Shown: one piece after another, positions 3,944 through 64,000 of the stretch
Position numbering within the stretch: position 1 is the stretch's first letter
Layout of the letters: every line of letters starts with the position of its first letter
Sequence record: PP488543.1
Length of the DNA: 64,000 nucleotides
From: Escherichia phage BP9
Direction: 5' to 3' (one strand)
Program-made: the position numbers and the translations under genes
The notes under the pieces: model-generated
Databases searched by the model: none
What the model was told of the DNA's origin: nothing
Seen by the model: the letters and a program-made list of their open reading frames with translations, nothing else

Positions 3944-4920
3944 TGTCTGAAAAAACGATTACTATTAAAGAGAAGGGGATTGCCCTGTGCCATAAGGCGC
4001 AAGGCTATAGCGCTAACAACAGACCTGTATCTCTTTTGATGAAGAGTGATCTTAAGCCTGAGCAGTTAACAGACGATATTGTTAAGGCACTTCGCCAAGT
4101 TACTGTGGAGCTTAGTTTTGAAGAATACCTGCGTCGTTTCTTCGATATGTGGTATGATGATGCTAAAGCACTTGCACACATGCTTGGTTTTGAGATTGAA
4201 GAGGAGGCTTGGGCTAAAGAGCATCCTGATTGGGAATGGGCGCAAGCTGACGCAGAGTCTTGTATTGCATGGCTGGAAGAGCGTTGTGATAACGTGACCA
4301 TTCATAAAGCTGCAAAAGAAGGTAAGCAGCTTAGTGTGGTAGATCAGTACAGCCTGTTAAAAACACAACAGATTTTTGAACAAGTAACCGCTGATCTCTT
4401 CGATAAAGAAGGGAACCTGATCAAGGCGGTACAGGAACCTGCTGAGGTGGATAAAACTACCGAGGTGGATGATGTTGCAAAATCCGCAAATACCGAGGAG
4501 AATCCGGTGGACGTAACCAAAACTAAAGAGTATCTGGATCTGCTGAAGCAAGTAGAAGAGCTGAAAGCAACCCAGAGTAAAGCTGAAGAAATCATCAAGG
4601 CCCAGGTTGAAGTTGAAAAAGCTAAAATGCTGACTAAGGCTCAAGCTTTAAGCTTTGTTGGTGAAGAAGATCACGCAACCCTGGTTGACTTCATGCTGGA
4701 GAAAGCTAACGAACCTATCGTAGCTATGCTGGAGAAAGCTCAAGCAAAAATTGAAGAGCTGGAAGCAGAGGTGCATAAAACTAAAGAAGAGTTTGCCACC
4801 ACTGAACATGGTAATGATGGCGAACCTGTTGTGGATGATGTTGCAAAATCCGCAGAAGAAATTCTTGCTGAAAACGTTGCAAAAGCACTTGCTCGTGCAC
4901 GTGCAGAATCTAACAAATAA
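3943..4920 (+). CDS. scaffolding protein
   Basis: 325 aa, acidic, long predicted helical/coiled-coil stretches, located between protease-like gene and capsid genes; TAATG coupling. Confidence 0.55.
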   Translation: MSEKTITIKEKGIALCHKAQGYSANNRPVSLLMKSDLKPEQLTDDIVKALRQVTVELSFEEYLRRFFDMWYDDAKALAHMLGFEIEEEAWAKEHPDWEWAQADAESCIAWLEERCDNVTIHKAAKEGKQLSVVDQYSLLKTQQIFEQVTADLFDKEGNLIKAVQEPAEVDKTTEVDDVAKSANTEENPVDVTKTKEYLDLLKQVEELKATQSKAEEIIKAQVEVEKAKMLTKAQALSFVGEEDHATLVDFMLEKANEPIVAMLEKAQAKIEELEAEVHKTKEEFATTEHGNDGEPVVDDVAKSAEEILAENVAKALARARAESNK

Positions 4921-4940
4921 GACATTAACGGGGGAAATAA

Positions 4941-5330
4941 ATGATTACCGCTCAATATTCTGATATCGTGCTCGGCAAAGTTGATTCTAGCGATGCTGGC
5001 TACAATTTTAAAGAGATGGAAATTACACTGACAGAGCACCATCATGCTGGTACTGTTGTAACAAAAACTGGCACTATCGCTAACGATGATGGCTCAGACG
5101 TTTATGGCGTTCTCGTAGACCGAGCTCTGGTAAAAGATGCAGGAAAAGTTCATCTCGCTGAGCCTCTGCAAACAGGTCAGAAATATAAACTGGTTGTTGC
5201 AGTTCACGGTGTTACCTTTGCAAAAGATAAGCTGCTGGGGTCTAACGGTGAAGCAGCTAAGCAGGCTGTTCTTGAAAAGCTGGAAGCTCTGGGTAACAAA
5301 GTTCACGTCCAGACTCTTGGTGAAGAGTAA
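4941..5330 (+). CDS. head decoration protein (lambda gpD-like)
   Basis: 129 aa directly upstream of major capsid gene; resemblance to gpD-type decoration proteins; SD GGGGGAA. Confidence 0.45.
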   Translation: MITAQYSDIVLGKVDSSDAGYNFKEMEITLTEHHHAGTVVTKTGTIANDDGSDVYGVLVDRALVKDAGKVHLAEPLQTGQKYKLVVAVHGVTFAKDKLLGSNGEAAKQAVLEKLEALGNKVHVQTLGEE

Positions 5331-52390: not shown

Positions 52391-53380
52391 TTATTTAACG
52401 TGTTTGAAAATACCTGCCAACTCGGTCATTGTCATGCGGGTGGTCTTCATAAGATCTGTCATAGCTTTCTCCATAATTGGAGATACTACCATAAAGTTAC
52501 CCTTGGTGAAACCTTTATTCCAGTCGGTCACTAATAGTGGTTTAAGTCCGACCCCGAGACGCTCACCAGTTAAAGCACAACATTTTCGAATGTACGTGCT
52601 CTTAAATTGACTGAATGACAGATCAACTTTCATACCTGCATCGTAGAACGTCTGACAATAGAAAGTGTAAGCTTTGGCAATCTCAACATCGTCAGGCAGT
52701 GCAGGAACCTCTTCTGTGAGCTCTTCTTCGTCCCCTTGAGGCTCTTTTTCCTCTTCGTAAGCCTGTTGCGCCACTTCTTTAATCTCCTCTGCTGCAGGCT
52801 CGTTTACAATGTCAGAAATGTGCTTGTTGGCTCCACGGTTAGCCATGAAGTTTTTAAAATCCTGCATTGGTGACATATCTTCCTCCCATTCTTCGTCAAA
52901 GAGTGCCAGTTTATCCTCTTCCGTCCCATATTGCAAGATGAAATCTTCAAAAGTGTAATCACCTTTCAATTTCTCCATGCGCTCTTCGCTCAGGTGGAGC
53001 ATCATCTGCTGGACAATTTTTCGATCAGTTTTGTCTTTAATCAAGATTGCGGTCTTTTTATCTACCAGGCAGTCTTTCAGAGAGTTACACCTCAATCCTA
53101 CCACACAACAGTTATCAATTGCGTAAGGACCTTCATCATCTATCCGCTCCAGAGATGGGTAGAAAGGATTCCCCAGCCCGTTTTCATCTGTGTACATGTC
53201 GAAAGGTATAAGGGTATAGTCGCATACCCCCTCTCCTAAAAGTTTTTTACCAAATAGGAGGTATTCTTCCCATGACAGGTTGAACTCTATATCCCGTTTC
53301 CGTGCATTATTCTGTTTGCGTCTATATTTTTTGAGCAGGCGCTCTAACTCTTCTGGTGTATAATATTTTTCAAGATTCAT
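52391..53380 (-). CDS. hypothetical early protein with Cys-containing N-terminal domain
   Basis: ATG at 53380 chosen because track TTG start 53446 lies upstream of the predicted promoter; first gene of minus operon. Confidence 0.4.
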   Translation of the reverse strand: MNLEKYYTPEELERLLKKYRRKQNNARKRDIEFNLSWEEYLLFGKKLLGEGVCDYTLIPFDMYTDENGLGNPFYPSLERIDDEGPYAIDNCCVVGLRCNSLKDCLVDKKTAILIKDKTDRKIVQQMMLHLSEERMEKLKGDYTFEDFILQYGTEEDKLALFDEEWEEDMSPMQDFKNFMANRGANKHISDIVNEPAAEEIKEVAQQAYEEEKEPQGDEEELTEEVPALPDDVEIAKAYTFYCQTFYDAGMKVDLSFSQFKSTYIRKCCALTGERLGVGLKPLLVTDWNKGFTKGNFMVVSPIMEKAMTDLMKTTRMTMTELAGIFKHVK

Positions 53381-53411
53381 GAGTTGTCTCTTGTGCTCTG
53401 TAGGTGAAGAA

Positions 53412-53440
53412 ATCTTATCAAGTGCCTCAACAGATGTCAA
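53412..53440 (-). promoter_or_regulatory. sigma70-type promoter for minus-strand early operon
   Basis: On minus strand: -35 TTGACA (plus 53435-53440), 17 bp, -10 TAAGAT (plus 53412-53417). Confidence 0.5.
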
Positions 53441-53453
53441 CCTCAAAAACGTG

Positions 53454-53482
53454 TTGACTTTACCCTAAATCCACGATATAGT
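53454..53482 (+). promoter_or_regulatory. sigma70-type promoter for plus-strand early operon
   Basis: -35 TTGACT 53454-53459, 17 bp, -10 TATAGT 53477-53482; -35 elements of the divergent pair form inverted repeat GTCAAC/GTTGAC. Confidence 0.55.
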
Positions 53483-53522
53483 GCACCCATTCGAAAGAAA
53501 ACGAACACAGGAGTACTTAATC

Positions 53523-54422
53523 ATGGCAAATCTTAACAGCTTTAGCACTCGGTGGAAACAAGATATCACAACCAATCTCTCAGCAGGCGATATCCTTTCT
53601 GCAATTTACGAGGCTTTGGATGATAAAGCTACTTCAAAAGCGGTTTGTACCAACCCACTAATTCCTGTAGTGATGAAGGTTATTGAGCGTAGATTGGTAT
53701 CTGGGTCTGATAAGTGGACATATTTAGATAATGAAGGACACACCTATTCCAATGGGTACGTCGATATAAAAGTAGAATACGCGGTATCATACCGCCGGAG
53801 CGGTTCTGTAACTTTCAACTTCTCTGGAGGTTTTCGATCTCTGGCTACCTCACCTTTTGTTTCCTCAGAGGAGAAGTATGAGCTTCCATTTCTTTGGATG
53901 ATGGCTAACGCGACAGGAAAAACCCCCGTTAGCATCCGAGTAAAATACAACTACAACGGATCTAGTAAGATCTATGCCGAGAGTGTCTCAGCAAGTTTTT
54001 ATTTTGTGATGGGGGATGGAATCCTCAAACATATAAAGATGTGCGATATGCATGATGTTATAAATGAAGTGACTGATAAGAATGTTCTGGTGAAGGATCT
54101 CAACAATTTTTATACACCCGGAGACTATTACGTCAGCCGTCCACTGTGCATCTTTAATGCCGCACACCCTCTAGGTGAGTATTTGATCGCCAATAGCGAT
54201 ATTGCCAATAACCGCTTCGAGGTAGCAAGAGTACAGAATGAGGTATTGACATCTTGCAAGAGCGGTGATAAGTTTACCGAAGAAGAGATGGGTGTTTTAG
54301 AAATGATGGGATATAAGTGTAGCCTTTGGGTAGATGAGGTGTTTAATGATTGCATCTATGGACAGGATATTTACCCATTAAAGAAGTATACTGATTCCAG
54401 TTTAATTTACGCGGAGATTTGA
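53523..54422 (+). CDS. hypothetical early protein
   Basis: ATG 53523 with SD AGGAG (track GTG 53481 overlaps promoter -10). Confidence 0.4.
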   Translation: MANLNSFSTRWKQDITTNLSAGDILSAIYEALDDKATSKAVCTNPLIPVVMKVIERRLVSGSDKWTYLDNEGHTYSNGYVDIKVEYAVSYRRSGSVTFNFSGGFRSLATSPFVSSEEKYELPFLWMMANATGKTPVSIRVKYNYNGSSKIYAESVSASFYFVMGDGILKHIKMCDMHDVINEVTDKNVLVKDLNNFYTPGDYYVSRPLCIFNAAHPLGEYLIANSDIANNRFEVARVQNEVLTSCKSGDKFTEEEMGVLEMMGYKCSLWVDEVFNDCIYGQDIYPLKKYTDSSLIYAEI

Positions 54423-54697
54423 CTATGATGAAGTCATGTGGTAGTGTATATTATGTTGGTGAGAATGTTCAGGCAGATAGTGTGTGGAAATCCATTAAGT
54501 CCACCACCGATGATGCCTTTCTGAGCGGGTTATGCTTTCCCAGCCCAGGGGACACTCTCCCTTACCCTGGAGATTTTGTTGTCAACAAGATGGACGGTTA
54601 TACCGTGTGCCTGATGGTTGAAAAAATCTTTTTAGACACTAGACACAATCACCGTCTTGTGTTAAAATTTCAAGAATGTAAAATGACAATTGCCTAA
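54419..54697 (+). CDS. hypothetical protein
   Basis: 92 aa; ATGA overlap with upstream gene. Confidence 0.35.
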   Translation: MTMMKSCGSVYYVGENVQADSVWKSIKSTTDDAFLSGLCFPSPGDTLPYPGDFVVNKMDGYTVCLMVEKIFLDTRHNHRLVLKFQECKMTIA

Positions 54698-54710
54698 GGA
54701 GACCTTGCCG

Positions 54711-55067
54711 ATGTCTAAAGTTACTTATCGTGCAGCTATTTACTGCAATGAACACCCAATCTATAATGATGGTCACTGCCTTTTTAAAGAAAATCAATTG
54801 GGCTGTATTGTCCTCCCTGATGAAGGTGAAGGTTATCTGATTGCGTTGACAGGGTTTGAACCTGAAGCTCTGGAAACCAATCTTGACTACCTGGTAGAAG
54901 AGGGTGCTGCAGACCTGGTTGCCAATGGCCTATCCGTAAGCCTTGATGAAGTGGAGCGCTTCATGGGCAATTACCGTGTAGTGCGTGAGTTTACTATCGA
55001 GGTGGAAACTCCAGAGTGGGGTAGCACTGAAACTAATGCCGAAGAAAAAGAAGAGGAGGTAGAATAA
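54711..55067 (+). CDS. small acidic protein
   Basis: ATG 54711 with SD AAGGAGA (track TTG 54690); Glu-rich C-terminus EEKEEEVE. Confidence 0.4.
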   Translation: MSKVTYRAAIYCNEHPIYNDGHCLFKENQLGCIVLPDEGEGYLIALTGFEPEALETNLDYLVEEGAADLVANGLSVSLDEVERFMGNYRVVREFTIEVETPEWGSTETNAEEKEEEVE

Positions 55068-55324
55068 TGAAAGTGCAGATCTTGACTAATGCCGAGAAGA
55101 TGTTTATTGAAGATACACCTTTTGAAGCTGGTGAGCTACAGTTCGTTTATTTTGTTGACTTAGATAAGGTGTTCCCTGCACTGAATCTGGGTCTGGATGA
55201 AGTTCCTCATAAGGTTTTGTGCCAAGTTGTTCGTGCCTTAGCGGCAGAGGGGGAGTTCCACACCCTTCAAGATATCCAGACCTACGGGTATCTTGAACTA
55301 CAACGAGAAGAAGAGGTGGACTGA
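55067..55324 (+). CDS. small acidic protein
   Basis: 85 aa; SD GGAGG; TAATG coupling. Confidence 0.4.
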   Translation: MKVQILTNAEKMFIEDTPFEAGELQFVYFVDLDKVFPALNLGLDEVPHKVLCQVVRALAAEGEFHTLQDIQTYGYLELQREEEVD

Positions 55325-55326
55325 TA

Positions 55327-55707
55327 ATGGCTCAGTGGAAGACAACAGTTGACCTTCATGATCAGTGGTTAGGACGCATCACTGAAGACGGGAAGTTAGT
55401 TGAGTGGGACAATAAGCATGTTAGCGAGTTGGCAAGTATTGTGGCTGGCAAGTTACGATCCAAGTTCCCTGAACAACTGGATCCTGATAGTTCAAAGTTC
55501 GATCCTGAGTTGGAGGATGTTGTATACTACTTCGACACCGTGGATGACTACGATGCGTGGTTTGCAGCACGGGAGCTTTACCCACAAGGATCTGCTATGC
55601 GCCAGATGGAAGAAGATTATCCTCCGTGCGAGCAATTCAATAGTGCAATGACTTGCCTCTACGATTGGGCAGATAAGAACCTTGTCTGGATTCGGACTGC
55701 ATTTTAG
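55327..55707 (+). CDS. hypothetical protein
   Basis: 126 aa. Confidence 0.4.
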   Translation: MAQWKTTVDLHDQWLGRITEDGKLVEWDNKHVSELASIVAGKLRSKFPEQLDPDSSKFDPELEDVVYYFDTVDDYDAWFAARELYPQGSAMRQMEEDYPPCEQFNSAMTCLYDWADKNLVWIRTAF

Positions 55708-55751
55708 TGGGCAGGAATGGCGGCAAGGATGCTGCTTAAGGAGTAGTAGAG

Positions 55752-56021
55752 ATGTTATACCAGCAATATGAACTTCGTGCAGAAAAAGAGTTAAATTTTG
55801 ACAAAGATATTCACAGATATTATTATGGGAAAGTTAGAGGGCAAGCAAGAAAGTGTACTCCAACACTCTTTTATGCCAGCAGACGACTAGCGCCAGAAGA
55901 GGCAACAGCAGAAAGGGTTGCGTACAACTGGAGAGTCACGTATGATATTGACAGATCCGATGTGATATCTGTTTTGGAAAACTTTGAAAACACTTACACA
56001 CAAGTAGAGGACTTTTACTAA
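55752..56021 (+). CDS. hypothetical protein
   Basis: 89 aa; SD AAGGAG; overlaps ATPase start. Confidence 0.4.
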   Translation: MLYQQYELRAEKELNFDKDIHRYYYGKVRGQARKCTPTLFYASRRLAPEEATAERVAYNWRVTYDIDRSDVISVLENFENTYTQVEDFY

Positions 56022-57205
56022 TGTCAAGAAACGTATTTGAAAGTGGTCAAATCACTGTCCGTGAGTTGCCAGCTATCATTCAGTTTGCCCAGCGTCATAA
56101 CCGATCTGTCCTGATTTTAGGACCAATGGGTGTGGGAAAGAGCCAGGTGATGAAGCAGATCGCAGACAATATGTTCGGTGAGCGAGATGACAACTTGGTT
56201 GACGTGCGGTTGTCAGATAAAGATCCTGCCGACTTATCTGGGCTACCTATCCCTGTAGAAGCGGATGGAACTACACGTACAGTGTTTGCAATTCCAGAAT
56301 TTTGGCCTGCGGATCCTGGCTGGAGCGGAATTATCTTTCTGGATGAGCTCACTCATGCAGATAACTACCTGCAAAAGGTTGCAATGCAAATTATGCTCGA
56401 CCACAAGTGCGGTACCTATGCATTCCCTAAAGGTTCTGTTTTTGTGGCTGCTGGTAACCGTTCTACAGATGGTGCGGTTCTTTCGGCGCTCGAAGCCCCT
56501 CTGGCTAACCGTTTTATCATTGTAGAAGTTACAAGCAATGCAGAGGTGTTTATTGAGGACTACGCATTCCTTAATGGGGTGCACTCCTCTGTAATTGGAT
56601 ATTTGAAAAGAGTTCCATCAGCTATCGATAATTATGAGGCTATGGCTGAGATTAATTGTCCATCTTTTGCCACACCACGATCTTGGGTTGCTGCATCTGA
56701 CATCTTGCACGATTTTGACAGCGGTATTATTTCTGACGCTATGGCCCGTGTTCTTCTGCAAGGTGCTGTTGGTCACACTGCAGCGGTAGAGATCTGGACT
56801 TACCACATCAAGAAACGTAACTTACCGGAAATCGGTCGGATTATGGCAGGAGGTTGCAAAGAATATGTAGGTCCTAAACAGCCAGACATCTTGTGGATTC
56901 TTGGATCTGAAGGTTGTATCGCTATTCGTAATATGATGGAAAATGCAAGTATCTCCGACGAAGATCTTGTTAGCTGTGTGGCAAACTTCCTCGATTTCCT
57001 TTGGGAAAATTTCAAGGACGAGAACCGAGATTTTGTATTCTCAGTCTTTATGGCGATGATGAAACCTAATGCCTTAGGAAATGCCTTGCTTATCGGTAAA
57101 GGGCGTGACAAGATTGTTGCTCAGCTGATCAAAGCATACCCAAACCTAATGAAGATTGTAAAAGAGTTTGGTGAAGAGTTTAGCGCCATTTTGGCTAAAG
57201 CTTGA
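56021..57205 (+). CDS. AAA+ ATPase, MoxR/CobS-like
   Basis: 394 aa; Walker A GPMGVGKS, Walker B IIFLDELTHAD. Confidence 0.75.
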   Translation: MSRNVFESGQITVRELPAIIQFAQRHNRSVLILGPMGVGKSQVMKQIADNMFGERDDNLVDVRLSDKDPADLSGLPIPVEADGTTRTVFAIPEFWPADPGWSGIIFLDELTHADNYLQKVAMQIMLDHKCGTYAFPKGSVFVAAGNRSTDGAVLSALEAPLANRFIIVEVTSNAEVFIEDYAFLNGVHSSVIGYLKRVPSAIDNYEAMAEINCPSFATPRSWVAASDILHDFDSGIISDAMARVLLQGAVGHTAAVEIWTYHIKKRNLPEIGRIMAGGCKEYVGPKQPDILWILGSEGCIAIRNMMENASISDEDLVSCVANFLDFLWENFKDENRDFVFSVFMAMMKPNALGNALLIGKGRDKIVAQLIKAYPNLMKIVKEFGEEFSAILAKA

Positions 57206-57214
57206 GGAGGTTGT

Positions 57215-57595
57215 ATGGCTAAAGTAGGTAAGCGGGGAAACTACTTGGTAGTATTGACCGAGGAGCCGGAGAAGGAGTACGAATGCAGCTCCACTTGCGT
57301 GATCGATATCCGAGAAAAAGATGTAGATGAAATCTGGTTTGAAATATTAGACGCTTGCGACAGCAGTGATTATTTCTTCATCTATGTCAACGATAAAGCC
57401 GGGTTCTTCCATGACGACGGAGAGTTGCCGTATGAAATCTATGAGCTTGTAGAGGCTTGCCATCGTGGAGATGCGGAGTTGTTTGGCTTACGGCTGAAAA
57501 GCGGTAAATTCTTCTATCAAGATGAGTGCATGAATCTTCATAACTTTGTAGAGGGAACTTGCAACGATGGAGAGATTTTGGTACACTACGATTAA
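57215..57595 (+). CDS. small highly acidic protein
   Basis: 126 aa; very high Asp/Glu content; SD GAGGAGG. Confidence 0.4.
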   Translation: MAKVGKRGNYLVVLTEEPEKEYECSSTCVIDIREKDVDEIWFEILDACDSSDYFFIYVNDKAGFFHDDGELPYEIYELVEACHRGDAELFGLRLKSGKFFYQDECMNLHNFVEGTCNDGEILVHYD

Positions 57596-57605
57596 TTTCT
57601 AAGAC

Positions 57606-57634
57606 ACCCCCGCTTCGGCGGGGATTTTCTATTT
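57606..57634 (+). terminator. intrinsic terminator (CCCCGCTTCGGCGGGG family)
   Basis: CCCCCGC-TTCG-GCGGGGG then ATTTTCTATTT. Confidence 0.8.
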
Positions 57635-57643
57635 GGAGTTATT

Positions 57644-58144
57644 GTGAAAATTAAGATCTTTGCTATTATTTTGAGCGCACTTTTATCGCTGCCTGTTGTT
57701 GCAGCACCAAAACAAAAAGTATATCATACTTGCAAGCCATCGGATACTAAGGAAAACATTCTGGCATGCAATATCTACAGGGAAGCTAGAGGAGATGGCA
57801 CGATGGGTATGCTGGCATCTGGGTTTGCCACCCTAAACAGGAAATCTCATCCCAAATACCCGGACACTATAAGAAAGATTGTCTACCAACCTAATCAGTT
57901 TTCGTGGACAACCTACGGCAAAACTTTTAAGGTGACAGAAAAAGATTCATGGGATCACGCTAAAAGTCTTGCAAAGATGCTTCTAAAGGTCTATAATAAC
58001 AACCATGTTGCATACATGGCTATGGATATAACAGGTGGAGCAACACACTACCATACGACCAAAGTACGACCGAAATGGGCAAAAAAGATGCAGAGGACAG
58101 CTCAATTCGGGAGTCATATCTACTACAAGGAGCGCAATAAATGA
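57644..58144 (+). CDS. secreted cell wall hydrolase, SleB-like
   Basis: 166 aa; N-terminal signal peptide MKIKIFAIILSALLSLPVVAAP; motif NIYREARGDG...LNR...IVYQPNQFSW; GTG start with SD GGAG. Confidence 0.6.
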   Translation: MKIKIFAIILSALLSLPVVAAPKQKVYHTCKPSDTKENILACNIYREARGDGTMGMLASGFATLNRKSHPKYPDTIRKIVYQPNQFSWTTYGKTFKVTEKDSWDHAKSLAKMLLKVYNNNHVAYMAMDITGGATHYHTTKVRPKWAKKMQRTAQFGSHIYYKERNK

Positions 58145-60123
58145 TTGTAAACAGTAATGAAACTAAAGCAGTGCTAACTGGAAATATGGAGGTCACCAGG
58201 GGCTCAATTTCTCTGAACAAAGAGACTTTTGGGCTAATCATTAAAGGGATTTACGAAGATAAGGTGCTGGCAAGCTGCCGTGAACCAATCTTCAATGCTG
58301 TGGACTCTCATGTTGAGTCTGGACGGGGTGATGTACCGATCATCATTCACTCTCCTACAGACCTTGAACCATACTTCTTTGTGCAGGACGTTGGATTAGG
58401 CATGTCAGAAGAGATGGTCCGCAACACTTTCATGAACCTCGGAGAGTCAACCAAGCGCAACAGCAACGCTCTGGTGGGTAATAAAGGTGTTGGTTCAAAG
58501 GCCCCGTTCAGCATGGTGGACACTTTCGATGTGATCAGTGTACACAATGGTGTTGAAAGCACATATCTATTGTTCTTGGATCAGGGTATCCCAAACGTTA
58601 CCAAAATCCGCGAGCGGAAGACCGAAGAGCACAATGGGGTAAAAGTTCAGTTCCATGTTAAGAAAGAGCATGTTCTGAAATATCGCACTGCTATTGCATC
58701 ATGCCTACGCTATGCAAAGTTTCCGTTTACCGTTACCGATCCTATGACCAATAAGATGCTGGAAGGTGACAAGGTTGAGGCGCAGTATCGCTACGAGAAA
58801 GATGGTTGGAAAATGACCATCCTAAAGGGCTATACCAGCTCTGACGAGAGTCGCGTGGTAATGGGTCACCAACCTTACCGTTCTAAGTTCCTGGAGACAT
58901 TAACAGACTACCCTGCAATCTGTGTAGAGATCCCTATCGGGGATTGCAATATTAACCCTGGGCGCGAATGGACCATAGAGGGGCACGACGATGGTGGATT
59001 CCAAGAGCGGTTGGAGGCTTTTGTCAAAGAGGGTATCCGTCTTCGTGGGGCAGAAGTTGTTGCGGAATTGGAGACAGCAAAAACATCCTCAGAAGCACGT
59101 GAGATGATGAAGAACAGTGGAGTGTTCGGGCACATCTTCGGTAAGAATTTTATGTGGGACCGATGGGAAGAGACAGGACTAGGAAGTTTGGGAGATTGTG
59201 AGATCTTCGCTGGCGGCTTAAATAAAGGCCGCATAGGTTACGCCTGCTACGGAAAGTCGGAGTTCTTACGAGGGGTCTACTTAGTGTTTAACGACGGAGA
59301 CGGCAAATATAACCGAAATAAGTGTAACTACTTAAGCGAGATCACCGGACGCAACGTTTTCTATTGCCGTAACACGGATTTGGTGGAAGAGTTTAAAGAA
59401 GCGGCACACCACCCGTTCTTTGCAGATACGGTCAAATTGTTATCAGAGCTTCCTCGCCGACCTGTGAAGAAAGGTGAAACCAAAACTCGTTACGAGCCAG
59501 GCTATTGGGTTAAAAAACTTGAGAAGGATGGTTACTTCCGTCGTGAGCGTATTACTAAGGCAGAGTTCAGGAAGATTAAGCACTGCATTCCTTATGAGGG
59601 TGATATCCAACGTGGAAGTTGTTGGCTGGGACAGCTGAGTAACATCTACCAGCAAAATTATGACCGTGTGCGTGCGGCACTCCAGATTCCTGAAGGGGAA
59701 GATCTGTACCTAGTATCAGAATCTCGTCTGCTTTGGACTGATCCTGATTGCCAGTATGTTACAGAGAAGAATGTGGAACATTTGTTGAAAGAGGACGCCT
59801 GGAAATTCTTACTGACTCGCGCAGCAAATGAAACTTCATATGACAGCCTGTATAGACAATTAGGGAAAATTATTCCCATGCAAGATTTTGGAAATTATCG
59901 GCCACATTTCCACAAGTGGGAAGGTAACACCGCGTGGAAGCACAGTGAGCTAAATCATCGTGCCAAAATCTTAATCGCCAACCGAGTTAAATGCGGGAAG
60001 GCCTATATTGCAAGATTGGAAAAGAAATACCCACTTTTGAAGCATGTAGGCTTGAAATATTGGGACACTCCTGCTATGATTGAATACCGTGAACTGATCG
60101 ATACAAAGAATAACATCAAATAA
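58141..60123 (+). CDS. rIIA: rIIA-like protein
   Basis: 660 aa; N-terminal region parallels T4 rIIA (...DVGLGMSEE...GNKGVGSKAPFSMVDTF...). Confidence 0.8.
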   Translation: MIVNSNETKAVLTGNMEVTRGSISLNKETFGLIIKGIYEDKVLASCREPIFNAVDSHVESGRGDVPIIIHSPTDLEPYFFVQDVGLGMSEEMVRNTFMNLGESTKRNSNALVGNKGVGSKAPFSMVDTFDVISVHNGVESTYLLFLDQGIPNVTKIRERKTEEHNGVKVQFHVKKEHVLKYRTAIASCLRYAKFPFTVTDPMTNKMLEGDKVEAQYRYEKDGWKMTILKGYTSSDESRVVMGHQPYRSKFLETLTDYPAICVEIPIGDCNINPGREWTIEGHDDGGFQERLEAFVKEGIRLRGAEVVAELETAKTSSEAREMMKNSGVFGHIFGKNFMWDRWEETGLGSLGDCEIFAGGLNKGRIGYACYGKSEFLRGVYLVFNDGDGKYNRNKCNYLSEITGRNVFYCRNTDLVEEFKEAAHHPFFADTVKLLSELPRRPVKKGETKTRYEPGYWVKKLEKDGYFRRERITKAEFRKIKHCIPYEGDIQRGSCWLGQLSNIYQQNYDRVRAALQIPEGEDLYLVSESRLLWTDPDCQYVTEKNVEHLLKEDAWKFLLTRAANETSYDSLYRQLGKIIPMQDFGNYRPHFHKWEGNTAWKHSELNHRAKILIANRVKCGKAYIARLEKKYPLLKHVGLKYWDTPAMIEYRELIDTKNNIK

Positions 60124-60133
60124 GGAGACCAAG

Positions 60134-60984
60134 ATGATTTTCATCTACGAACATTTCAAAACCCGTAAAGAAGCAAGAGACCGCCGTGCAGAACTTGAGA
60201 AGAAGGGTTTCATATGTGCCATTGAGAAAGGCGACACAACCTGGACACTGGCAGTTGGTGCCCCAGAGTTGTTCGATCCTGACCGTGACAGCGTCTGCTA
60301 CACCCGTGAAGATTTTGAAACCCGCGAAGAGGCCCGTTTATTTCGATACGGTCTGGAAGATAACGGTAAGTACGCCATGATCTTAGATTTAGGCGAAGGG
60401 TCCGTTAAACGTTGGGGCGTGGTATACCCACTGTGTGTTGTTCATGGTGTGGGGTTCACTGGGGTAGCAATCAAGTCAGAAGAACCTTTAGTAGAAGTCA
60501 AAGATCCGGTGCTGGAGGTGGTGAGCAGTGTATCTCAGCAACAGACTCGAAGTATTGAGCCTTTGGTAGTTATTTGTGGGGAACTCCTCCAGATCACCTG
60601 CAACGAAGGCATTTTTGAAATTCGCCGCAGTGAAAGTGAGGAAGTTTACCAGAAAGTCTTCGACCATATCTCTGTCCAGAAATATGACGAGGCAATTGGT
60701 GAAATCCTTGTCTGGTTGGAACGCAAGAATGAGTTCACTACACTTGCAGACAACCTGATCATGAAAGATGGTAAGCTCTACTACTACGGTGTAGAGATGC
60801 GATCCACCATTGCAAAGAAAATTGAGAAAGATTATGCAGACGGAACACTAGATGACCGCTATGTGAAATTCCTAGTTCGCCTGCTACGCAATCCTTCTGC
60901 AAAATCTGTAAACATGCTCTACGATTTTATGCAGGCCAACGATATCCAGCTTGCAGAAGATGGTCGAATCATTTGCTACAAAGG
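60134..60984 (+). pseudogene. rIIB: rIIB-like gene, 3'-truncated at junction with IS2 remnant
   Basis: Matches T4 rIIB through ...[25 protein letters not shown]; ORF then runs into IS2 sequence to a stop at 61033. Confidence 0.75.
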
Positions 60985-61271
60985 AGTTCATTTTCCATCG
61001 TTTTTTTGCCGAGCAGGAGCTGGAGTTCTTTAATCTGCTTCATGGCAGCAGCAAGTTCAGAGGCAGGAACGACCTGTTCTCCTGCGGCCACAGCAGTAAG
61101 ACTTCCCTCCTGGTATTGCTTGCGCCAGAGAAATAACTGGCTGGCTGCCACACCGTGTTGCCGGGCAACAAGGGAGACCGTCATTCCCGGTTCAAAGCTC
61201 TGCTGAACAATAGCGATCTTTTCCTGTGTAGTACGCCGTCTGCGTTTCTCCGGTCCTAAGACATCAATCAT
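60985..61271 (-). pseudogene. insC: IS2 insC (orfA) 3'-truncated
   Basis: First 97 or so codons of IS2 OrfA present; remainder of IS2 absent. Confidence 0.8.
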
Positions 61272-61362
61272 CTGCTCTCCAATGACTAGTCTAAAAACTA
61301 GTATTAAGACTATCACTTATTTAAGTGATATTGGTTGTCTGGAGATTCAGGGGGCCAGTCTA
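60985..61362 (-). mobile_element. IS2 left-end remnant (terminal inverted repeat plus 5' part of insC/orfA)
   Basis: Minus strand reads TAGACTGGCCCCCTGAATCTCCAGACAACC... and encodes [56 protein letters not shown]...; match stops after ...KTMENELL near 60985. Confidence 0.85.
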
Positions 61363-61384
61363 TATTCCACGCTGTACTGCAGTG

Positions 61385-61681
61385 ATGAATGGAGTATCTT
61401 CTGATCTTATCGGTTCAAATTCGTTTCAGGTAAACCCATCTATTTTTCACAAACATACTAGTTCAATCGATGTCAATAATGGAATTCATTCTATGGCATA
61501 CGATAATCACATGGCCTCTGGTAACATTGCAGAAACTGAAATATCTGAACTTACTCAGGATATTGTATCTAAAATAAAACTTGGTTATGCAAGTGAAACG
61601 ACTTCTGGAGTTGATGTTGTTATTGCCAGAGTGCAGGTTATTTTTGATGGATTAACATCATCTGGAGTTTGCAGGAAATAA
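61385..61681 (+). CDS. hypothetical protein adjacent to IS2 end
   Basis: ATG at 61385; track ORF (61325) extends upstream into IS2 and is probably artefactual; weak SD. Confidence 0.3.
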
Positions 61682-61856
61682 ATTTTGGCAACTAATAAAC
61701 CGCCTTACATTTATGGTTGTTTATGAATATTGTCATCAAAAACCAATGAATTGATAGTTATTTCAGAATATCTGATGGTTAAACATATATGGTTTGTTGT
61801 GTGTGGTGAGCTGTAAGTGAAGAGGTTCGATATGTACAAAAAAAATGGTGTGTGCT

Positions 61857-62261
61857 ATGTCGGTTAACATAACAACTGAGTCTTTAAATCAATGGCTTAG
61901 TGTGAGCTCTCTTGCTGCGGTTATCGTAGGCGTTCCGCCAGAGGTGGCGCTCGGTGCTCTTGCTGGCGCGGTAATTTTTGTTACCTCTGCGGTAGAGTAT
62001 CCAATTCGTCGTCGCGTACTCTTGTCGATGCTCAGCTTTCTCTGCGGACTTCTTTTCTACAAACCAGCAGCATCAATTCTTATCGGCATAGCCAGCCTGA
62101 TCCCTACCATCACGCAGGACTCTTTTGAAAAAGGTATTGTTTTCTCTGCTGGCGCATTCGTGTCAGCAATTGTCGCTGTGCGTATTGGTATATGGCTCTA
62201 CCACCGTTCAGACAATCCACGCGATTTAATTCCGGGGAGAAAAGACGATGGTAACGCATGA
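61857..62261 (+). CDS. multi-pass membrane protein, holin/antiholin-like
   Basis: Three to four hydrophobic helices; first gene of lysis cassette; alternative start 61845. Confidence 0.45.
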   Translation: MSVNITTESLNQWLSVSSLAAVIVGVPPEVALGALAGAVIFVTSAVEYPIRRRVLLSMLSFLCGLLFYKPAASILIGIASLIPTITQDSFEKGIVFSAGAFVSAIVAVRIGIWLYHRSDNPRDLIPGRKDDGNA

Positions 62262-62556
62262 GTTTTTTTTGCTTATCACCAATGCAGTTATTTGTACTGG
62301 CATAGCAATTCGCGTTGTCACATTCCGGCGTAACGGATCTCAACACCGAAGATGGGGTGGGTGGATTGCTTATTTCCTGATTGTTGCTGCGGCCAGTATT
62401 CCTGTTCGTGTCGTTTATGCAATCTGGTTACGCACGCCAATGGCTGTGGATTTATCTGAGGTCATTATCAACGCTGTCATGCTTGCTGCGGTTATTAAAA
62501 CGCGCGGTAACGTCGTTCAGATTTTCAAAATAACGAGGTCTAAACATGGAGATTAA
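62248..62556 (+). CDS. membrane protein, holin-like
   Basis: 102 aa; three hydrophobic segments; overlaps upstream gene; immediately upstream of endolysin. Confidence 0.45.
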
Positions 62557-63175
62557 ACAATTCCAGCGAGCTGCTGGTATTAGAGAGGCGCTGGCCGCTC
62601 GCTGGTTCTCGCATATAACTTCTGCGATGAAAGAGTTTGGTATCAGCAAAGCAGAGGATCAGGCAATGTTTATTGCTCAGGTCGGGCATGAATCTGTGGG
62701 CTTCACCAGATTGCAGGAGAATTTCAACTACAGTGTCAGCGGTCTGGCTAACTTCGTTCGGGCTGGGCGTCTCACTCAGGGGCAGGCTAATGCACTGGGT
62801 CGCCGTGCTGGTGAACCACCATTGCCACTCGAGCGCCAGCGAGCGATCGCCAATCTGGTGTACAGCAAACGCATGGGGAACAATTCCCCTGGTGACGGCT
62901 GGAATTACCGAGGCCGTGGACTTATCCAGATTACCGGTTTGAATAACTATCGTGACTGCGGAAACGGCCTGAAAGTGGACCTGCTGGAGAATCCTGAACT
63001 GTTAGCGCAGGACGAATATGCGGCTCGTAGCGCGGCGTGGTTCTTCTCCAGCAAAGGTTGCATGAAGTATACCGGCGATATTGCACGTGTAACTTTGATT
63101 ATCAATGGTGGCAGGAACGGCATCGACGACCGGAGAGCGCGGTACATCACTGCCAGTAAGGTGCTGGCGGTATGA
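62546..63175 (+). CDS. endolysin, GH19 chitinase-like lysozyme
   Basis: 209 aa; motifs VGHESVGF and [11 protein letters not shown]. Confidence 0.75.
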
Positions 63176-63654
63176 TCTGGGCATTCGTAAAAGCATACTG
63201 GAAACAGTTGCTTATCGTGGCGGTGCTTGCTGTTCTGGTCATATCAGGGGTTGTTGCCTGGAATGTACACGGTAGTCGTCAGTACGACGCCGGGTATGCA
63301 CAGGCGAAAGAAGACCGCAAAACCGAAGATGAGAGAGTTCGTCAGCACTACGAACAGGAGAAATCGATCAATGAACGTGAAGCGCAGCAGAGGATCGACC
63401 AGGCGCGCAATGATGCTCTTGATGCTGCCGCTCGCGCTGGCCGGTTGCAGCAACAGCTCGTTGCCATCCGTGAGCAGCTCAGGCAGTATAACGCCATTGT
63501 CGGCGCTGGGACGTCAGCCGCAGACACCGGAGTTTTGCTTGCCGACGTGCTCAGTAAATCTCTCGAGAGAAACAGACAACTGGCAGAGTATGCTGACCGG
63601 GCAGCCGAAGCCGGAAGAGTCTGTGAAAAACAGTACGACACCCTGACCAGATAG
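63172..63654 (+). CDS. i-spanin (Rz-like)
   Basis: 160 aa; N-terminal TM helix [18 protein letters not shown] then coiled-coil; ATGA overlap with endolysin; embedded Rz1 frame. Confidence 0.7.
63371..63646 (+). CDS. o-spanin (Rz1-like lipoprotein) embedded in Rz
   Basis: +1 frame within Rz; signal peptide with lipobox LAGC; Pro-rich mature region. Confidence 0.6.
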   Translation: MNVKRSRGSTRRAMMLLMLPLALAGCSNSSLPSVSSSGSITPLSALGRQPQTPEFCLPTCSVNLSRETDNWQSMLTGQPKPEESVKNSTTP

Positions 63655-63825
63655 CATGGCATTTTTCATGGTACTGATTTCCGGTGACGGTATATAAAAC
63701 GGTACGGTAAAAATTGAGATTTGGAAAAATGTTATCACTCAATTGGTTATGGTATCCGTAAATAATTGAGTGGGAATGATTAACAGCTAACTCATAGCAA
63801 ATCATTCCTATTCAGATGCTAACTC

Positions 63826-63859
63826 AACCCTCTGTTTTTGCAGAGGGTTTTTGTTTTTA
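63826..63859 (+). terminator. intrinsic terminator downstream of lysis cassette
   Basis: CCCTCTG-TTTTTG-CAGAGGG then TTTTTGTTTTT. Confidence 0.75.
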
Positions 63860-64000
63860 TGTATTCATTTCTATTCACTCTACACCATATTTTTCGGCGG
63901 TACAGGTGACGGTATTACCTTAAAGGTATACTCTCATACCGTCATGAAAATGGTTTCTATATGGGTGAATTGTGCTTACCGATACAAAATTAAAAAACCT

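Follow-up and report, generated by a model that had tools for sequence, protein, structure and literature searches.

A SleB-like cell wall hydrolase gene with a predicted Sec signal peptide next to rIIA in an rV5-like coliphage

The hydrolase gene, its neighbors, and its transcription

The stretch of Escherichia phage BP9 DNA analyzed here (64,000 nucleotides, nt; hereafter, the window) contains on its plus strand, at 57644-58144, a 166-aa open reading frame (ORF) that starts with GTG and ends with TGA, as read from the sequence and the ORF list. Its neighbors are a T5.083-like ORF (gp3) upstream and rIIA downstream. The features of the locus to which we refer in this report are as follows.

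53454-53482, plus strand: sigma-70 promoter P010 (TTGACT-17-TATAGT), matching 10 of 12 positions in a consensus scan and near-identical to P010 of rV5
57608-57634, plus strand: intrinsic terminator/attenuator, with a 6-bp all-GC stem and a UUCG loop, then A-TTTTCTATTT
57635-57638, plus strand: Shine-Dalgarno sequence GGAG, 5 nt 5' of the GTG, read from the sequence
57644-57703, plus strand: predicted Sec signal peptide, aa 1-20 (MKIKIFAIILSALLSLPVVA), from hydrophobicity and the -3/-1 rule
57704-58144, plus strand: mature SleB/CwlJ-fold (Hydrolase_2) domain, 146 aa, 16.9 kDa, pI 9.9 (coordinates include the stop codon)
57731-57769, plus strand: Cys30-Cys42 span (codons 57731-57733 and 57767-57769), a predicted periplasmic disulfide pair
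57782-57784, plus strand: codon of Glu47, predicted to be catalytic, in the motif YREARGD (aligned to YGESRGE of SleB)
58141-60123, plus strand: rIIA (PHROG 612, E=1e-124), whose ATG overlaps the hydrolase stop codon (ATGA)
60134-60994, plus strand: rIIB (PHROG 609), truncated at the junction with an IS2 fragment

The terminator (CCCCGC-UUCG-GCGGGG plus a T-run) forms a perfect 6-bp hairpin directly 5' of the hydrolase gene, constitutes the boundary between that gene and gene 3, and is the same element as t003 of rV5 (-16 kcal/mol), to which it is identical in sequence. A preliminary description of this DNA had placed the 166-aa ORF alone behind a terminator and immediately upstream of rIIA/rIIB, without an adjacent holin gene, and our data bear out this layout: the hairpin occupies 57608-57634, rIIA overlaps the hydrolase gene at 58141, and the ORF list of the window contains no small membrane-protein ORF adjoining the hydrolase gene on either strand. 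The ATGA overlap suggests that translation of rIIA may be coupled to that of the hydrolase. By means of tblastn, we found no conserved pairing of the hydrolase with gp3 (T5.083-like) or MoxR at the homolog loci of Mydovirus, Certrevirus, T5-like phages, and KPP10.

Positions 55000-61000 of the window share 96-97% nucleotide identity with more than 100 genomes of rV5-like (Vequintavirus) coliphages, and positions 1-60994 are collinear with positions 434-61118 of MaxTheCat. Because collinearity is confined to this MaxTheCat interval, the window holds about 45% of the phage genome, i.e., the first 61 kb of an rV5-like genome of ~135 kb. Collinearity stops at window position 60994, within rIIB, which at full length in MaxTheCat measures 1206 nt. 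A 381-nt fragment of IS2 (InsC reading frame) occupies 60982-61362, and from 61363 onward identity to E. coli chromosomes reaches 100%. The only holin-endolysin-spanin cassette of the window (two holin-family genes, a GH19 endolysin gene, and a gene for an Rz-like spanin) lies at 61845-63654, and no phage record in the collection searched spans the rIIB/IS2 junction. Hence, the earlier statement that the sole classical lysis cassette is found beyond IS2 was right as to location, but the cassette is E. coli prophage DNA joined to the truncated rIIB and is foreign to this phage.

The hydrolase is the ortholog of rV5 gene 2, which appears in Table S3 of the rV5 genome paper (PMC3606486) under the name "cell wall hydrolase," with a length of 166 aa and the family PF07486. 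It was thus already catalogued, and there is nothing novel about it as a sequence feature, its annotation dating back to that paper. Identity to the counterparts in more than 100 published Vequintavirus genomes is 96-99%; the rV5-like copies (97-99% protein identity) are all alike in their length of 166 aa, the upstream t003, and the overlap with rIIA. The gene is present in 1,225 phage records, and the names given to it in GenBank are cell wall hydrolase, SleB cell wall hydrolase, and endolysin. Our homolog set came from an exhaustive search of representatives, which returned 11,009 matching cluster representatives, compared with just 5 proteins from a word-indexed search. A chance origin of the ORF is excluded, because of its presence in that many phage records and cluster representatives. 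Among more distant orthologs, CB7_83 of Pectobacterium phage CB7 is ~47% identical to the hydrolase. This SleB-like protein was reported in 2020 to have homologs in all Vequintavirinae genera, to be predicted with a signal peptide, and to be toxic upon expression in E. coli (data not shown there); its homolog CR3_087 of Cronobacter phage CR3 had previously been given a role in host lysis (PMC7344957). Published work and databases already cover the gene, the family to which it belongs, and the signal peptide of its orthologs, and nothing in our analysis runs counter to expectation.

The hydrolase gene belongs to a rightward block in which a MoxR ATPase gene is followed by the genes for the hydrolase, rIIA, rIIB, helicase, primase, and polymerase. 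In rV5, genes 10-1-238-164 form a transcription unit driven by the sigma-70 promoter P010 (PMC3606486), and we propose that the P010 sequence at 53454-53482 may drive an early unit that includes the hydrolase gene, rIIA, and rIIB. Neither a consensus scan nor the rV5 promoter list revealed a promoter between t003 and the GTG codon, and transcription must therefore read through the terminator. One consensus match, at 57642-57669, was rejected as a promoter, since it straddles the hydrolase start codon. We infer that t003 may act as an attenuator, with read-through limiting the dose of the hydrolase. The T4-like late motif of rV5, TGGTAAAATA, occurs 21 times in the window (5.5 expected); its plus-strand occurrences are confined to 590-44733, i.e., to structural genes, and it is absent from 53300-61000. 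Our literature search turned up neither transcriptome nor proteome data for infection by an rV5-like phage, the single paper retrieved being concerned with a T5-like phage. Layout and motifs together point to hydrolase expression that would be early and low.

The N-terminus and the catalytic domain

The hydrolase begins with MKIK, followed by an uncharged hydrophobic run of 18 residues with a mean Kyte-Doolittle (KD) hydropathy of 2.35. Heuristic inspection revealed the n-, h-, and c-region anatomy of a signal peptide, with Pro at -4, and the sole site that satisfies the -3/-1 rule and is followed by a permissible +1 residue is VVA/APKQK (the slash marking the predicted cut), after A20. This site resembles that of OmpA (AQA/APKD). 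An N-terminal hydrophobic segment was present in 147 of the 155 homologs and in every phage lineage checked. More specifically, the N-termini of the Mydovirus, Certrevirus, Justusliebigvirus, and T5-like homologs differ in sequence and are alike in anatomy, their cleavage sites being VLA/K, SFA/K, AQA/E, and SQA/S. Likewise, the cysteines of the homologs covary as pairs, namely, positions 30 and 42 (the rV5 type), positions 39 and 77 (the T5 type and most others), or both, with all four found in few proteins; this pattern suggests structural disulfides formed in the periplasm, a mark of exported proteins. The Sec-type signal peptide noted in the preliminary description is thus upheld as very probable, and of the classical cleavable kind, given the n/h/c regions, the VVA/AP site, and conservation across lineages.

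Other routes of export were rejected upon inspection of residues 1-25, which contain neither a lipobox cysteine (lipoprotein) nor a twin-arginine motif (Tat). A SAR domain was also rejected: the 18-residue run, at KD 2.35, has a G/A/S/T fraction of 0.33 and is followed by a canonical -3/-1 site, and the SAR domains of P1 Lyz and R21 measure ~24 residues, with a KD of ~1.4 and G/A/S/T fractions of 0.5-0.6. The first 18 residues of the mature hydrolase carry a net charge of +2; a net positive early mature region can slow Sec translocation and is an uncommon trait among E. coli proteins that are exported efficiently.

We also observed that in the records of VB-EcoM-WM and of one Klebsiella Mydovirus the annotated CDS is shorter and begins at an internal ATG. 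A start at this codon would delete both the signal peptide and E47; VB-EcoM-WM retains the complete ORF, starting with GTG. Such internal-ATG starts represent a practical annotation problem in several records.

The SleB-like hydrolase domain named in the preliminary description was recovered by every approach that we used, i.e., profile search, comparison with the PDB, and structure prediction. The Pfam family Hydrolase_2 (PF07486) matched with E=4.3e-19 and 69.4 bits (cut-off, 27) over profile positions 2-100 of 100, and PHROG 938 ("endolysin") matched with E=5.5e-27. Hydrolase_2 was the sole Pfam match, with no N-terminal peptidoglycan (PG)-binding domain, and residues 21-37 form a short Lys-rich linker. 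A phmmer search of the PDB returned as its only matches the SleB catalytic domains 4F55 and 4FET, in which YREARGD of the hydrolase aligned to YGESRGE and E47 to the Glu of the SleB motif. The AlphaFold (AF2) model built from an alignment of 79 sequences reached a pLDDT of 94.9 (a poor single-sequence model, with a pLDDT of 49, was discarded), and Foldseek matched it in the PDB only to 4FET and 4F55 (target-normalized TM 0.72-0.79, probability 1.00), the best match being 4FET (TM 0.78-0.79, rmsd 2.7 Å). E47 and R66 were invariant in all 80 aligned homologs, and Y45, R49, Q85, F86, S87, W145, and H158 were nearly so.

The hydrolase therefore has in common with SleB, the germination-specific lytic transglycosylase of Bacillus, its catalytic fold and the Glu motif, and SleB is also made with a signal peptide, judging from the depositors' name "prepeptide." However, the hydrolase is not an equivalog of SleB, an assignment that we rejected on the basis of TIGR02869 (47.4 bits versus a cut-off of 236.5), and the PG-binding domain is absent. 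Moreover, unlike in the setting of SleB, its host has neither a spore cortex nor muramic delta-lactam, and its substrate must therefore be ordinary Gram-negative peptidoglycan. Because SleB is a lytic transglycosylase, as the title given to 4FET by its depositors states, we consider by analogy that the hydrolase probably attacks peptidoglycan at its glycan strands, with E47 serving as catalytic acid in what would probably be a lytic transglycosylase reaction. The toxicity of the ortholog CB7_83 in E. coli bears indirectly on such peptidoglycan cleavage. For Gram-negative phage Hydrolase_2 proteins, the literature searched contained in-silico mentions only and no enzymology.

Lysis genes and hydrolase homologs in other phages

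Complete rV5-like genomes encode a 156-aa "endolysin" (e.g., bas57_0207 of MaxTheCat) that lacks a hydrophobic N-terminus. A Pfam scan of this protein gave zero matches, and it was a PDB match (1AM7, E=3e-56) that revealed its homology to lambda lysozyme. LysECP26, from the rV5-like phage ECP26, is a 156-aa protein with 62% identity to lambda lysozyme and lyses Gram-negative cells in vitro. The lambda-R-type gene was termed the "obvious lysin" by the rV5 authors (PMC3606486). Complete rV5-like relatives additionally carry i- and o-spanin genes beside the terminase gene, and other loci have been put forward as holin candidates. Judging from the collinearity with MaxTheCat, the endolysin gene, the spanin genes, and the holin candidates all fall outside the window, except that the last part of the o-spanin gene is found at the window start.

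These observations bear on several points of the preliminary description. Holin and spanin genes had been expected to be sought in the rest of the genome; in the complete relatives, spanin genes and holin candidates are present, but no holin has been positively identified. The notion of a phage short of the normal lysis set is not sustained, as the relatives carry a lambda-R-type endolysin, i- and o-spanins, and holin candidates. Nor can we retain the hydrolase as "the" secreted endolysin: because the relatives keep all of these components, and the lambda-R-type endolysin coexists with the hydrolase in the family, the hydrolase is probably a second, accessory enzyme.

A comparable combination of two wall enzymes was observed in other phages. 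KPP10 has a PF11860 Muramidase (ORF26) by its tail fibers and a Hydrolase_2 protein (ORF143) encoded between the ligase and helicase genes; Phapecoctavirus has Phage_lysozyme and Hydrolase_2; LNA4 also has two such enzymes; and in T5-like phages a Hydrolase_2 gene with a signal peptide is located in the early region. The Hydrolase_2 proteins of the T5-like, phi92-like/Phapecoctavirus, and KPP10-like phages are 35-41% identical to the hydrolase, consist of a single domain, and have an N-terminal hydrophobic segment. Their genes are situated in early or DNA-metabolism regions and coexist with that of a canonical endolysin; the T5 type has the cysteine pair 39/77.

The order hydrolase-rIIA-rIIB is common to Vequintavirus and Mydovirus. 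Mydovirus has an additional 51-aa ORF, containing two hydrophobic segments, between the hydrolase gene and rIIA, and our search of the window and of a complete rV5-like genome for a homolog of this ORF yielded nothing better than E=0.6. Certrevirus has no rIIA/B and keeps the hydrolase gene at the equivalent place, with a small ORF and then the helicase gene downstream; a two-TM class II holin candidate overlapping the hydrolase gene has been described there by its authors (PMC7344957). The homologs of the T5-like, phi92-like, and KPP10-like phages have no rII neighbor. Consequently, the association with rIIA/rIIB to which the preliminary description had drawn attention is not obligatory: adjacency to rII is a lineage feature rather than a requirement, because Certrevirus keeps the hydrolase without rII genes, and it is a peculiarity of Vequintavirus proper that no small membrane protein adjoins the hydrolase.

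Role of the hydrolase

With moderate confidence, we favor the interpretation that the hydrolase is an accessory muralytic enzyme, i.e., Sec-exported, cleaved, disulfide-stabilized, produced in a modest early dose together with rIIA/B, and serving as a holin-independent aid to lysis. According to this model, the protein, synthesized with a Sec signal peptide of the classical type, would reach the periplasm without a holin; signal peptidase I would cut after Ala20, a Cys30-Cys42 disulfide would stabilize the mature form, and the latter would cleave glycan strands via Glu47, by analogy with SleB probably as a lytic transglycosylase. The gene would be co-transcribed and translationally coupled with rIIA-rIIB as part of the early/replication unit, outside any late lysis cassette, with transcription probably arising from P010 by read-through of t003, which would keep the dose low. 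The principal endolysin would be the separate cytoplasmic lambda-R-type lysozyme, with the holin and spanins encoded elsewhere, and the hydrolase would most likely pre-weaken or remodel the sacculus, leading to faster or more complete lysis when the holin fires. What counts against this model is that an enzyme free in the periplasm from early in infection ought to put the host at risk ahead of progeny production. Some restraint is needed, which might lie in a small dose, in weak activity toward intact sacculi, or in a dependence on membrane depolarization.

Lys44 of oenophage fOg44 offers a comparison. It is Sec-exported by means of a cleavable signal peptide, is the only endolysin of its phage, has a holin encoded next to it, and works against a Gram-positive host. 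The hydrolase resembles Lys44 in that its predicted export would not depend on a holin and would call for extra restraint against premature lysis, and it differs from Lys44 in being a second enzyme, in having no adjacent holin gene, and in belonging to an early unit. We regard it as quite unlikely that the hydrolase is itself the principal, Sec-exported endolysin, its timing set by pinholin-type depolarization in the manner of Lys44 and the lambda-R-type enzyme being redundant. Such a role would agree with the name "endolysin" in PHROG 938 and many GenBank records, with the toxicity of the ortholog CB7_83 in E. coli and the assignment of CR3_087 to host lysis (PMC7344957), and with the fact that a holin was never positively identified in rV5-like phages. 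It would agree, too, with the 51-aa two-segment ORF directly downstream in Mydovirus and the overlapping class II holin candidate of Certrevirus (PMC7344957), and the small membrane protein right after the hydrolase in these two genera hints at a holin-enzyme pair with a more direct lysis role there. Yet here that small membrane ORF is absent, and it has no homolog across the rV5-like genome. Moreover, rV5-like genomes retain an intact lambda-R homolog without an export signal, which is active in the form of LysECP26 and whose gene is the "obvious lysin" of the rV5 authors (PMC3606486); the hydrolase gene is preceded by a terminator and belongs to the early/replication unit, distant from the late-promoter motifs; and four unrelated lineages have the hydrolase on top of a canonical endolysin.

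The accessory model also presupposes a cleaved N-terminus. The hydrolase and the SAR endolysins (P1 Lyz and R21) have in common an N-terminal hydrophobic segment, Sec-dependent export (predicted in the case of the hydrolase), and Gram-negative hosts, and signal-peptide calls on Gram-negative phage lysins often turn out to be SAR domains. The N-terminus might thus be an uncleaved signal anchor, SAR-like or a permanent tether, that holds the enzyme at the inner membrane until depolarization. Positive charges flank the run on both sides (MKIK ... PKQK), the early mature region is net +2 as noted above, and Pro22 bars cleavage at the second Ala, Pro at +1 forbidding cleavage by signal peptidase I as a general rule. 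Nevertheless, we consider an anchor very unlikely: the run is shorter and far more hydrophobic than the SAR domains of P1 Lyz and R21 and lower in G/A/S/T, it ends with a helix-breaking Pro at -4 and a canonical V-x-A/A site, the homologs finish in the classical sites listed above, and the SleB/CwlJ fold is not the T4-lysozyme fold of the SAR endolysins. By comparison, a main job that is non-lytic, i.e., early periplasmic management of the envelope (e.g., wall remodeling, or an effect on superinfecting phages or on lysis from without) linked to rIIA/rIIB, is unlikely rather than far-fetched. The early placement and overlap with rIIA, the hydrolase-rIIA-rIIB order shared by Vequintavirus and Mydovirus, the fact that the enzyme is surplus to a complete canonical lysis set, and the position of the T5-like and KPP10-like homologs among early or DNA-metabolism genes are all in keeping with it, but the Certrevirus hydrolase occurs without rII, the other lineages have no rII neighbor, and the toxicity of CB7_83 on expression fits simple wall damage (PMC7344957). 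Finally, certain injected or virion proteins contain PG hydrolase domains, PF07486 among them, and the hydrolase could in principle breach the wall at infection as a virion-associated lysin. We deem this extremely improbable, since a Sec signal peptide would route the protein away from virion assembly, the gene is not part of the structural module (where a separate tail lysozyme and gp25-like protein are encoded), and the hydrolase is not among the proteins named in the mass-spectrometry text on rV5 virions (PMC3606486). The suggestion in the preliminary description that the enzyme is virion-independent accords with the same absence from the named virion proteins, with the early-region position of the gene, and with the signal peptide.

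Beyond the accessory model for this phage, the homologs prompt a broader and distinctly tentative idea, which we think doubtful as it stands: exported SleB-fold hydrolases may constitute a conserved, holin-independent class of "second wall enzyme" in large virulent Gram-negative phages, with a role distinct from end-stage lysis. If true, this role could possibly be early conditioning of the sacculus or action on superinfection or on lysis from without, and in Vequintavirus and Mydovirus the second wall enzyme could be coordinated with rIIA/rIIB. Carriage of such an enzyme raises the questions of how the infected cell tolerates a free periplasmic wall-cutter and what the phage gains from it, the answers to which bear on lysis timing and on the mining of enzymes that reach Gram-negative peptidoglycan. 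The rV5-like, T5-like, and phi92-like coliphages used as therapeutic agents or models carry, beyond their endolysin, such a predicted muralytic enzyme, which is apparently exported.

Chimeric right-hand end of the window

Our analysis revealed that the window consists of three joined parts, namely rV5-like phage DNA, a fragment of IS2, and E. coli prophage DNA, arranged as follows:

60134-60994, rIIB, inside which the rV5-like phage DNA ends (at 60994)
60982-61362, IS2 fragment (InsC), 381 nt, overlapping the end of the phage DNA by ~13 nt
61363-64000, E. coli prophage DNA, 3' of the IS2 fragment

Because no phage record in the collection searched spans the rIIB/IS2/prophage junction, this junction probably reflects an assembly or composite join, not a real phage structure. 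A complete lysis cassette of an E. coli prophage occupies 61845-63654, comprising two holin-family genes (PF16931 and PF05449), a GH19 endolysin, and an Rz-like i-spanin (DUF2514); this stretch matches E. coli chromosomes at up to 100% identity. Embedded in the cassette is a +1-frame ORF that carries a lipobox (LALAGC) and likely encodes an Rz1-type o-spanin.

Start codon and cysteine pairs of the hydrolase

In some GenBank records, an internal ATG has been taken as the start of the hydrolase CDS, for example:

PQ014731.1 (phage VB-EcoM-WM), 8806-9147, hydrolase CDS as annotated, internal ATG start
PQ569690.1 (Klebsiella Mydovirus), 4564-4947, hydrolase CDS as annotated, internal ATG start

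With such a start, the protein loses its signal peptide, and the VB-EcoM-WM version lacks the catalytic Glu47 as well; the GTG-initiated hydrolase ORF of VB-EcoM-WM is complete and undamaged. Alignment of the exported Hydrolase_2 homologs (positions numbered on the window protein) revealed two alternative covarying cysteine pairs, i.e., 30+42 (rV5 type) or 39+77 (T5 type and most others), with all four residues (30, 42, 39, and 77) present in some homologs. As the cysteines occur as alternative covarying pairs, the aligned sequences suggest that the two pairs represent interchangeable disulfide solutions.

Gene neighbourhood of the hydrolase

Upstream of the hydrolase gene, the window carries the following genes:

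56021-57205, MoxR-type AAA ATPase, preceding the 126-aa ORF
57215-57595, acidic 126-aa ORF (PHROG 12370), directly upstream of the hydrolase

The rV5 paper (PMC3606486) describes the 126-aa ORF as a homolog of T5.083. In the loci examined from Mydovirus, Certrevirus, T5-like phages, and KPP10, the hydrolase is accompanied by neither this ORF nor the MoxR gene. In the Klebsiella Mydovirus record, the hydrolase and rIIA are separated by an ORF at 4952-5107 whose 51-aa product contains two hydrophobic segments; this product is possibly a class II holin or pinholin, and has no counterpart in rV5-like genomes.

Related records and proposed late-promoter motif

Over window 55000-61000, 16 records named 'Campylobacter phage' are ~96% identical to rV5-like coliphages, and the matches listed include C2 and C12 (host given as C. 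jejuni), both of which are unannotated. The host attribution of these records looks doubtful.

When up to 1 mismatch was tolerated, scanning the window for the proposed rV5 late-promoter motif TGGTAAAATA yielded 21 matches versus 5.5 expected, 19 of which are on the + strand at 590-44733, i.e., in the structural-gene region.
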